From the NCBI RefSeq assembly GCF_006345805.1, contig NC_043002.1:52824001-52888000 (forward strand): a stretch of DNA of 64,000 nucleotides. Reading direction: 5' to 3'. Source of the DNA: Octopus sinensis. Taxonomy: Eukaryota. Below are positions 18,098-63,204 of the stretch, piece by piece; the first letter of the stretch is position 1, and each line of letters opens with the position of its first letter. Under the pieces are notes generated by a model that was not told the DNA's origin, did no database searches, and saw nothing but the letters and a program-made list of their open reading frames with translations. Both the position numbers and the translations under genes were made by a program.

Positions 18098-18408
18098 ATT
18101 TTTTAGTTATAAATCTTTCACTGAGGAGGGAGCTGGTTTCCAACAAAGATACAATGCTCCATTAACACAAACAAATTCACATTTGGTACTTGAGAAAAGT
18201 CTTGCATATTTTTACTGTTCCACTCACAAATTGCACTCATAATGTACAAATTAGCTGGTCAATTTCTCTTCCTGAAATTCCCAGTTTATCCAGATTCTCC
18301 TTTAAGCATTTACTTACAAAATCTAGTACTCCAGTTATTATTGGTATGAATATGAATGCATAGTCTGGATAGAGAAGCTGGATGTTTCCAAGCAGTTGTC
18401 CATAGACA
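18098..18408 (-). mobile_element. R4/Dong-like LINE 3' fragment
   Basis: VYGQLLGNIQLLYPDYAFIFIPIITGVLDFVSKCLKENLDKLG; homologous to 60770-61090. Confidence 0.82.
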
Positions 18409-19224
18409 TGTATGTATGTGTGTAAGCATGCATGCATATGTATGTATGTATGCATGTATGTATGTGTGCATGCATGTGTGTATGTATATGTGTGCGTATG
18501 TGTGTGTTTGTTTACATATCTGTTCCCCATCACCAAATCACTCAGCTATGGGTAGTAGTGATATTGATGTGATTTTTTCCTTGTTAAGAAATCATCAACA
18601 TTCAAAAAGGTGTGGAATAAGACAGATCTTGAAAAACAGGCAAGGATTAGCAACAAAAGAGGCATCCAGCGGTAACACAATGAATGCTTCAACAATATAT
18701 TTGTTCAACCAATGCTAGCTTAGAGAAAACTACCTCAGCTTCAAAGTGTCAAATAAATCTATAAACTTTTTTATGTATATAGAATGCTTTTTCTTCTCTC
18801 ATTTGTACAACTACAAACAATGGCAAAAAGTAAAATGAAAATAAAAATAAATAAATAAACATATTTTCCTGTTAGATATTTAATTAATAACAATCCCAAT
18901 TAATGTTTAAAAACAAATTAAAATAAATAAAAAAAAAAAAATGAGAATGCATCAAGCCAAAATCCCAATAATAGAAGTTGAGTTATTGGCTATTTATAAT
19001 TTGTTGACAGCAGTGAAAACAATTGTTGATCCAAAGTAGTTAAGAAATACAGAAAAGAAATGTGGAAATTAAATGAAAAAAAGAATGGAGAGAGGGAGAG
19101 GGACAGAAAAAGAGAGGAGAAAAAAAACAACAAAAGATCTTTTCAATTAAATATCAATAAGTTTAATATCAAATTTGTTTGCAGAAATATGTAAGAGAAA
19201 ATCCTAAATTAAAAAAAAAAAACA

Positions 19225-39904: not shown

Positions 39905-40015
39905 CTGTTGGTGGTACAAAAGCAAACAACACTTTCCAGAACAAGCAGACAAAATGCATGATGTAATCCATACAAGAAGGGAGTTTTTCTTCTTCACCAT
40001 CGTCGTCATCATCTC
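39905..40015 (-). CDS. NCX: NCX internal exon, 111 nt, phase 1 to 1 (acidic linker, LPSC motif, amphipathic helix)
   Basis: ctgttttag|GA GAT GAT GAC ... CCA CCA ACA G|gtaagt; translates (G)DDDDDGEEEKLPSCMDYIMHFVCLFWKVLFAFVPPT, typical of SLC8. Confidence 0.97.
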
Positions 40016-46975: not shown

Positions 46976-47011
46976 CTTTTTCCTTTCTGTCTTCAGCATT
47001 TGCTTTTTCAG
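46976..47011 (-). CDS. NCX: candidate 36-nt cassette exon of NCX (AEKANAEDRKEK)
   Basis: tttgcttccttctttgcag|CT GAA AAA GCA AAT GCT GAA GAC AGA AAG GAA AAA G|gtttcc; phase 1-1, no stop, purine-rich, but the donor is weak. Confidence 0.35.
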
Positions 47012-55686: not shown

Positions 55687-56705
55687 TTATAATAATGCTA
55701 TTTGTTTGTCCATGCTTTCCAATAAATTCTGCTAATTTATCCTTATTTTTCAGATTTTTCTGAATTTTTCAAATTATAAAAAGGAATTTATAGACTATTC
55801 TTTTGTTAATTACTTTTTTTTAGAGTCCTATGCAGTTGAGAGTAGACACCGAAACCCTCTTGGTTCCTCCACTCCTGACTCAACAGAGCATACAAGATAT
55901 CTCAGATGGATGGAGAGAGGGCTGCATGAGCATCAAGCACTTGGCTGGTATTCATTTTTGGCTGAGTTGATTGAAGCAACATGTAATGAATTATCTTGCT
56001 CAAGGACACAACGCAATGCCTAAACTAGGAATTGAACCCCTAACCTTATGATCATGAACTAAGTCTTTGAACTACCGGACAAATCAAGTGGAAACTAAAT
56101 ATACTATACAAACTGATCCTTCTCTTTTCCTTCTTTGCCAGTTTAGTTATATAGATCTGGGCATTCACCATTGCTGTAATTAGCATAAAGCACCTATATG
56201 AAACAGGGTATGGGACATTTCTAGTACGTGTCCCTTTAAACATATATATATTTTTACTTTATATATAATAATTAGTGAAGCAAAAGTTTAAGTTTGAAAT
56301 GCTACTATTTTTTTTTTTTTTTAATATTTTATGCAAAAGGGCTTTCAAGAGAGAAAAAAAAAGTGAGGAAATAAAACAGAAGACTAAAGTTTAAAGACTT
56401 GGAAAAGAGGAAAAATAGTAAAGAGAAAGGTGGTAGAATAATGCTATTTAGCAGACAAGCAGTAAAGAGTAAGTTTGACTAGCAAGCAGATGAGAAAGAA
56501 TGAGTAGAGTGAGTGAGCTAGTGAGTACTAAAAAGGAGCCTTTCAAATTAGATTTTAAAAAGTGTTTGAAAGAAAGGAACGAAAGGAAAAAAAAAAAATA
56601 AATAAAAGTGATGTAAGAAGGTAAGTGAAGAAATAGCCATTGCTAATAGAAAATGAGAAAAGATATTTGGTGATAGTTTTTTTTTTTCTTTGTTTGTTTT
56701 CTTAC

Positions 56706-56708
56706 CTT
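56706..56708 (-). CDS. NCX: candidate 3-nt microexon of NCX (adds one Glu: VNA-E-GDDD)
   Basis: Minus strand ttttctgtttttgtttttcag|AAG|gtaaga: long pyrimidine tract, CAG acceptor, near-consensus AAG|GTAAG donor; frame-preserving in the phase-1 intron. No transcript evidence available. Confidence 0.62.
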
Positions 56709-56901
56709 CTGAAAAACAAAAACAGAAAACTCAAGTTTTTTCTGCTTGCAGTTTAAAATGTCTTCCAAAGACTCCAGCAAGAAGCAATGCATACAATAAA
56801 AAAAATGGGAAAGAGAGAGAGAGAAAGAAAGAGAGAAAGAGGTTTGCATTATTAACATATACAAAAAGTAACATCGTCAATATTAAACCATAGGTACATA
56901 C

Positions 56902-60769: not shown

Positions 60770-61470
60770 TATTTTTTAATTATTATAATTATGAGGAGAC
60801 AGCAGGTTTCCGACAAAGATACAAGGCTCCATCTTTGGAATGTAGTTAACACAGACAAATTCACATTTGGAACCTGAGAAAAGTCTTGCATATTTTTACT
60901 ATTCCACACATAGATTGCACTTGTAATGTACGAATTAGCCGGTTGATTTCTCTTTCTGAAAGTTCCAGTTTATCTAGATCCTCCTTTAAGCATTTACAAA
61001 CAAAATCTAATACTCCAATTATTATTGGTGTGAATATCAATTCATAGTCTAGATATAGAAGCTGGAGGTTTTGAAACAGCTGTCCATAAATATTCTTTTT
61101 TTGTTTTTGATTTTCAAAGAGATATTTATATCTACAGAGTAGCTGACATCTATGATGGTACATACCTTGGCCCCTCTGTCCCAAACAACAATATCCAGCC
61201 AGTTATGTTTATATTTGACAGAAGTTTTGATGGGAATATTCCACCAGTATTCTTTGAGTTGGTGTTTAAGAATGTATTCTATAACAGAGGGATTTTCTAA
61301 GTTTATTTCAGGACAGTCTTTTTTGTGGATGGCATTGTAAATTGTTTTAGCAACAACATTGTGCCACATAAAGAGGTAGTACCATGATGACATTTTAGGA
61401 CAACTGCTAATCACATGCATGATGTCTTCCACAGAAACATGACATAGCTAACACATGAGGTTGCACCTTG
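60770..61470 (-). mobile_element. R4/Dong-like non-LTR retrotransposon 3' end (CCHC knuckle plus restriction-like endonuclease), frameshifted
   Basis: C*LCHVSVEDIMHVISSCP (CCHC), WHNVVAK (RHN.VA), HNWLDIVVWD (RPD), IIDVS, K...IYGQL, PIIIG across ORFs 61049-61432 and 60861-61184. Confidence 0.9.
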
Positions 61471-63104: not shown

Positions 63105-63204
63105 CTGCATTGACTGTTATGGCCTCAATGAACTGTTCTCTCCAGGAAGAAGTGCTAACGACAAGAGATAAGTTAGCTTTCTTTAGTAACTTGTCAACCA
63201 CACT
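63105..63204 (-). CDS. NCX: Na+/Ca2+ exchanger internal exon (end of large cytosolic loop), 100 nt, phase 0 to 1
   Basis: Minus strand reads ccttttatcttttcag|AGT GTG GTT GAC ... GTC AAT GCA G|gtcagt and translates to SVVDKLLKKANLSLVVSTSSWREQFIEAITVNA. This matches the SLC8 segment STVDKLIKKTNLALVVGTNSWREQFIEAITVSA. Not in the ORF track; upstream exons are outside the window. Confidence 0.96.

Follow-up and report, generated by a model that had tools for sequence, protein, structure and literature searches.

Within the 64,000 nucleotides of Octopus sinensis DNA analysed here (the whole stretch being referred to below as the window) we encountered a candidate three-nucleotide exon, AAG, at positions 56706-56708 on the minus strand, whose inclusion adds a single glutamate (residue 695 of the octopus protein P0006) to a Na+/Ca2+ exchanger. 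It is likely that this is a real cassette exon conserved across the coleoid cephalopods, the residue being present in databases and apparently unrecognised as an exon. On the reading that we consider probable from the sequence comparisons, this coleoid microexon is mostly included and sometimes skipped, and its glutamate would fine-tune, not switch, inactivation of the exchanger.

The host gene was assigned by homology to the SLC8A/NCX Na+/Ca2+ exchangers on the basis of its transmembrane and Calx-beta domains, XIP region and pre-TM6 cysteine. RefSeq isoforms X3-X6 of O. sinensis NCX (PF01699, PF03160, PF16494) are 100% identical to the last NCX exon of the window, and human NCX1 (8jp0) was aligned with octopus P0006 over residues 18-910. 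The window holds four NCX coding exons, all on the minus strand. The first of these (63204-63105) encodes the end of the CBD2 region and TMH1, as judged by homology and from the human NCX1 alignment, and ends in WREQFIEAITVNA-G at a phase-1 donor. It is followed by a phase-1 intron of 23,089 nt (40016-63104, minus strand), which hosts the microexon, and then by an exon beginning GDDDDDGEEEKLPSCMDYIMHFV (40015-39905) that by homology encodes the acidic linker, a cysteine equivalent to the NCX1 palmitoylation site, and TMH2. The two remaining exons are located at 37238-37080 (EYWGG to GTSVP) and at 35988-35612, the latter being the last coding exon and running up to the stop codon. Because the upstream exon stops at 63105 (VNA G, phase 1) and the downstream exon starts at 40015, inclusion of AAG gives A-E-G-D and skipping gives A-G-D, and these exon ends agree with the phase and the alternative products given in the preliminary description.

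Read along the minus strand, a T-rich tract leads into cag, the AAG of the exon (56708-56706) and then gtaaga. The polypyrimidine tract with its CAG acceptor (56709-56730) contains 17 pyrimidines in 22 positions and the donor (56700-56705) matches the consensus, placing a very short exon between canonical AG and GT. A UC-rich/U-rich tract located approximately 90-135 nt upstream (56797-56842, minus strand) may be a regulatory element. The strong acceptor and strong donor, 3 nt apart, that had been pointed out earlier are therefore seen again both in the minus-strand sequence and in a strict scan, the rule for which was fixed after the AAG site was already known and required a YAG acceptor, at least 16 pyrimidines in 20, a tract without AG, a GTRAG donor and an exon of 1-30 nt. 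Under this rule the AAG at 56706-56708 is the sole match in the whole 23,089-nt intron. The chance level was estimated from block shuffles of the intron (1000 for every one of three block sizes): a strict match of 3 nt arose in 0.6-1.0% of shuffles (P 0.006-0.010), an in-frame strict match of up to 30 nt in 7-9% and any strict match of 1-30 nt in 20-25%, and since some candidate appears this often by chance, the sequence by itself is at most suggestive of a microexon. Over 144 kb of the gene strand (the window plus 80 kb upstream) the AAG site is the sole 3-nt match, and the opposite strand over the same distance yields none under the strict rule and one under a relaxed rule. Four sites of the form AG-A[A/G]G-G[T/C] occur in the intron, with a pyrimidine tract plus a consensus donor at 56706-56708 only. 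Over its full length, the 561-nt flank of the microexon matches the genome once, and the remaining 24 of the 25 matches listed are confined to its short CT repeat. A transposon origin of this flank is thus unsupported among the matches listed, and the earlier statement that roughly 1.2 kb around the site is free of recognisable transposons can be upheld for the 561 nt that were covered, which are single-copy apart from the CT repeat.

Proteins from other sources supply the included form. Of the 18 coleoid proteins in which the junction could be read, 12 contain VNAEGD, namely four RefSeq isoforms of O. sinensis, the squid cDNA product O02196 (NCX-SQ1) and seven Logan proteins, and in the remaining six the residue is skipped. 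The comparison of VNAEGDDD with VNAGDDD in cephalopod exchangers that had been proposed earlier therefore finds the glutamate in two thirds of the coleoid sequences, NCX-SQ1 included, and the included form is represented in transcripts at the protein level. VNAEGDDD is present in all four of the RefSeq isoforms found (X3-X6), so that the residue already stands in RefSeq as well as in a 1998 cDNA. The genome analysed here, or one very close to it, may underlie the RefSeq models; their glutamate likely reflects transcript evidence, because the ends of the flanking exons cannot supply it. Read-through of the octopus donor gives G-Q and of the acceptor L-G, and in cuttlefish-like sequences donor read-through yields G-Q (P0020, P0133) and acceptor read-through S-G (P0289, P0290). 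As read-through at both intron ends is free of glutamate in octopus and in the cuttlefish-like sequences, a tandem donor or NAGNAG acceptor at the flanking exons was rejected as the source of the residue.

Three of the skipped sequences (Logan P0009, P0130 and P0131) are transcript-derived and share 99.8-100% of their aligned residues with included forms; they are full-length open reading frames on contigs of 3-4 kb, which implies RNA. The other three are genome-based models (P0007, P0019 and P0038, of which P0007 and P0038 are octopod) that could simply miss a 3-nt exon and say little on skipping. Both forms are present in two transcript-derived decapodiform clusters. In the cuttlefish-like set (P0008, P0009, P0122 and P0123, 100% identical over aligned residues) the included form is found on 84 contigs and the skipped form on 2, although contigs keep majority paths and these counts are consequently not inclusion levels; P0126 and P0127, which are 98-99% identical to this set, also include the residue. 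The second, decapodiform-like cluster has two included and two skipped forms. All four combinations of the glutamate with a 7-residue insert in CBD2 are present. A search of sequencing runs listed 24, of which 20 contain part of the stretch; none is on record as RNA and all are stored as contigs, so they speak neither for nor against the exon. The 91 distinct linkers, obtained from 251 of the 307 proteins, include four that start with EG, and all four are coleoid. The Sepia gene model P0020 contains FFVFSE, which resembles the read-through of the octopus microexon (FCFCFSE), a likeness that offers a weak hint, the model being unreliable. The three protein searches for NCX brought up no protein labelled Nautilus, so the origin of the exon is not datable below the coleoids, in which octopods and decapodiforms separated roughly 270-300 million years ago. 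Taken step by step, the spliceosome very likely uses the AAG site at 56706-56708, the glutamate in squid and cuttlefish probably derives from the orthologous exon, and it is fairly probable that octopus too skips the exon.

It is possible to read the same data as an exon that is real but effectively constitutive and neutral, with skipping an occasional error at a tiny exon and the glutamate a tolerant acidic spacer residue. The strength of both splice sites, the contig counts of the cuttlefish-like set, the uniform inclusion among the RefSeq isoforms and the wide natural variation of the linker all accord with this, but the equal numbers of included and skipped forms in the second decapodiform cluster do not, and the retention of a 3-nt exon in octopods and decapodiforms, together with recurrent optional inserts in other phyla, suggests selection. 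We consider a neutral, constitutive exon rather unlikely.

Alignment to human NCX1 places the glutamate between A722 and G723, inside the segment 709-SWREQFIEAITVSAGEDDDD-728. This segment was mapped by Gok et al. as necessary for XIP binding, for which an electrostatic action was proposed (PMC7296346, accessible sections). The proposals that the site lies in the XIP-binding segment, upstream of the palmitoylated cysteine and away from the CBD2 splice region, thus hold in the NCX1 alignment. According to the accessible part of the cryo-EM account, residues 708-757 of NCX1 form the membrane-embedded helices TMH1 and TMH2, palmitoylated C738 starts TMH2, and XIP forms with the TM1-2 hairpin a beta-hub that cuffs CH2; that part describes no XIP contact with the acidic linker (PMC10550945). 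HDX ties TMH2-TM1-TM6 to regulation in the sections available (PMC11021524). The structural placement of the glutamate is derived from the alignment and these published structures. Linkers across the family comprise 9-43 residues with a net charge of -3 to -15 (median -8; 91 distinct linkers), and the exon shifts the octopus linker from 11 residues and -7 to 12 residues and -8. One glutamate would thus slightly lengthen and acidify the regulatory linker; it is small beside the family-wide variation, and at most a small tuning of inactivation might be expected. That the altered length and charge between TMH1 and the palmitoylated TMH2 would have a measurable effect on Na+-dependent inactivation is conceivable, though doubtful. 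NCX-SQ1, which represents the included form and came from a stellate ganglion library, has Na+-dependent inactivation (PMC2217150, accessible sections).

More diverse insertions are found at the same junction in other lineages. We read the TMH1-TMH2 junction in 20 non-coleoid NCX clusters (up to 15 listed members of each), 7 of which were picked since an insert was already visible and 13 without one. Forms with and without an insert occur in 9 of the 20 clusters among the members listed, and clear variation is present in 3 of the 13 that were picked without a visible insert. The inserts are DKES in Ostrea, DKDS in Magallana, VGQL in both of two Haliotis clusters (one of which also has EACR and GMDSEYET), 6 residues in Mytilus, 9 in Mya, 11 in Dreissena, a single residue in Lineus, and 2, 5 and 9 residues in Branchiostoma. 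They are known from proteins, mostly automated models, and some may be shifted splice sites. Among the members listed, variation by insertion is absent from 9 of the 20 clusters (Saccostrea, scallops, horseshoe crabs, Ptychodera, Saccoglossus, Asterias, Antedon, Xenopus NCX1 and one other), the Xenopus NCX1 junction being invariant in 14 of 14 readable records. Two clusters fall outside both groups, one consisting of Elysia models and the other of flatfish NCX2a, in which 1 of the 15 listed members has an extra Ala. Three different inserts occur within a genus in Haliotis rufescens (P0214-P0216) and in Branchiostoma (P0238, P0240 and P0239), which suggests several, or mutually exclusive, small exons at this junction in these animals. 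The recurrence of unrelated inserts suggests a second NCX splicing site beside the XIP-binding segment. A more far-reaching proposal is that the TMH1-TMH2 intron is an overlooked splicing hotspot, in which coleoids, oysters, mussels, abalone, clams, ribbon worms and amphioxus would independently have placed different tissue-regulated micro-inserts that tune XIP- and palmitoylation-dependent inactivation; in this full form we consider it unlikely. Were it true, cephalopods would do so with the smallest possible unit, a single glutamate, and in the very exchanger on which the classical squid axon studies were made.

The preliminary description had pointed to the mostly neural, SRRM/eMIC-dependent nature of microexons and had proposed a one-residue splice switch that could tune Na+-dependent inactivation. 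In its full form this reading would make the exon a neuron-specific switch driven by Srrm234/eMIC, with a clear effect on that inactivation. In its accessible sections, the published eMIC code comprises a weak 3' splice site, a long AG-exclusion zone, UGC by the acceptor and a strong CUAAY branch point (PMC8797185). The octopus exon has a strong 3' splice site, an AG-exclusion zone of 21 nt (compared with 47-112 nt for the six further NCX exons with protein support that were measured), its nearest UGC at -42 and no CURAY branch point within 200 nt. Apart from the UC-rich tract upstream, the features of this code, which was derived from flies and mammals, were not found at the exon; with most of them missing we do not class it among the eMIC targets, and the claim of eMIC dependence is not established. 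A neural switch is compatible with the cloning of the included form from stellate ganglion (PMC2217150, accessible sections), with the UC-rich tract itself, with the enrichment of ion channels among fly eMIC targets and with a match to SRRM_C (PF15230) in the genome that lies above the cut-off (32.6 bits, E 3.3e-4). It is weakened by the dominance of inclusion in one cluster (84 contigs to 2) as well as by the cis-features, and as a whole it appears quite improbable. Higher inclusion in nervous tissue, taken by itself, is a reasonable possibility if not quite a probable one. The SRRM_C match is partial (positions 13-55 of 67) and is situated in RS-rich sequence on the minus strand of a small contig (G000:C11337:11167-11301, L009), a sequence that may be a fragment of octopus Srrm234.

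A further alternative takes the site as a recursive-splicing point. Use of the second AG (AAG followed by GT) would remove the intron in two steps and leave no insert, use of the first AG would leave the 3-nt exon, and the two isoforms would then reflect a choice between tandem acceptors within cagAAGgtaag in place of exon skipping. The arrangement of the site, two AGs 3 nt apart with a consensus donor directly after them in a 23-kb intron, is what such a point might look like, but AAG is a weaker acceptor than CAG, and we regard this route as very improbable. It is extremely improbable that the motif is a chance event and that the glutamate comes from elsewhere (an indel allele, or an exon absent from the assembly), for although a strict candidate of 1-30 nt is common in shuffled introns, a 3-nt one occurs in no more than 1% of them, and this one encodes the observed residue in the right phase, is alone in having good signals among the four sites able to encode glutamate, and has both of its forms recurring across two separate decapodiform clusters.

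Several other candidate exons and elements were observed in and near the gene. A single Ala in CBD2 distinguishes RefSeq isoforms from one another (KKPA or KKP), ahead of both possible next exons. In the corresponding CBD2 intron of 28.5 kb, the best of six AG-CNG-G[T/C] sites is a CAG on the minus strand (L005:6206-6208), situated upstream of the end of the window by approximately 46 kb. Its donor reads GTGAG, its acceptor (AAG) is weak and a UGC is present at -18; it is possibly a second one-codon exon in the octopus NCX gene. A 21-nt cassette exon encoding DTDSAHS (L005:2366-2386, minus strand) belongs to the classical CBD2 splice region and may be present or absent in octopus as well as in the two decapodiform clusters. 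The 23-kb intron contains a possible 36-nt in-frame exon on the minus strand (46976-47011), of which the acceptor is good and the donor weak. As an octopus homologue of a 21-residue stretch in Sepia P0020 it was rejected, the loose similarity not being significant (an equally high score was reached in 38 of 200 shuffles), and it is represented in no retrieved protein. A strict 18-nt candidate at approximately 64016 (L001:16 into window 63999, minus strand) lies within the intron that precedes the 63204 exon; this intron is not phase 1 and stop triplets occur in some frames, and the candidate may be a chance match or a poison exon. Degraded fragments at 60861-61447 and 18237-18545 (minus strand) share near-identical translated stretches and resemble a non-LTR retroelement.

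A literature search, with most subscription papers outside its reach, found no paper describing the AAG exon or splicing at this junction and no report on a skipped form of NCX-SQ1; the accessible parts of PMC9820601, PMC4384741 and 10.1101/2023.03.23.533999 are silent on the site. Splicing at the TMH1-TMH2 junction is apparently new for the NCX family. The conserved one-residue exon and the unrelated inserts point to a second tunable site by the XIP-binding segment and the palmitoylated cysteine. A single-residue test is possible in an exchanger that has already been cloned and patch-clamped, NCX-SQ1 being the included form, and it would bear on the disagreement between peptide mapping, in which XIP binds residues 709-728, and cryo-EM, in which it acts through the beta-hub and CH2. 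Genome-only gene models of cephalopods can miss the glutamate. We attach moderate weight to these points, as isolated microexons of 3 nt belong to an established class, databases already contain the glutamate and its effect may be small.

Among known systems, the neural microexons governed by Srrm234 (SRRM3/4, eMIC) in bilaterians, as described in the accessible sections of PMC8797185, resemble the octopus exon in being very short, frame-preserving and located in an ion-transport gene, and the genome has a partial SRRM_C match. In contrast to them, the octopus exon has a strong 3' splice site, a short AG-exclusion zone, a distant UGC, no CURAY and apparently majority inclusion. Squid NCX-SQ1 (O02196) is an orthologue, approximately 85% identical over aligned residues to octopus NCX, and has the glutamate. 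In the accessible text it was published as a single cDNA with this residue unrecognised as an exon, and nine RT-PCR clones from neural RNA gave He et al. no other isoform, a result discussed there for the CBD2 region (PMC2217150). Splicing of NCX1, NCX3 and Calx is described for CBD2, involving exons A-F (PMC2408596, PMC2217150; accessible sections of both), where small in-frame exons likewise diversify the cytosolic regulatory part, and the octopus gene also varies in CBD2, by inserts of 1 and 7 residues. Unlike these, the AAG exon encodes a single residue and is found some 80 residues downstream of them, in the stretch that separates TMH1 from TMH2. The 'Type I convergent' tissue-specific exons at equivalent intron positions were reported in a preprint (bioRxiv 10.64898/2026.09.05.749416) whose accessible main text mentions octopus three times and does not name NCX, SLC8, Calx or an exchanger; the likeness to the TMH1-TMH2 junction lies in unrelated short inserts that recur at one and the same junction.
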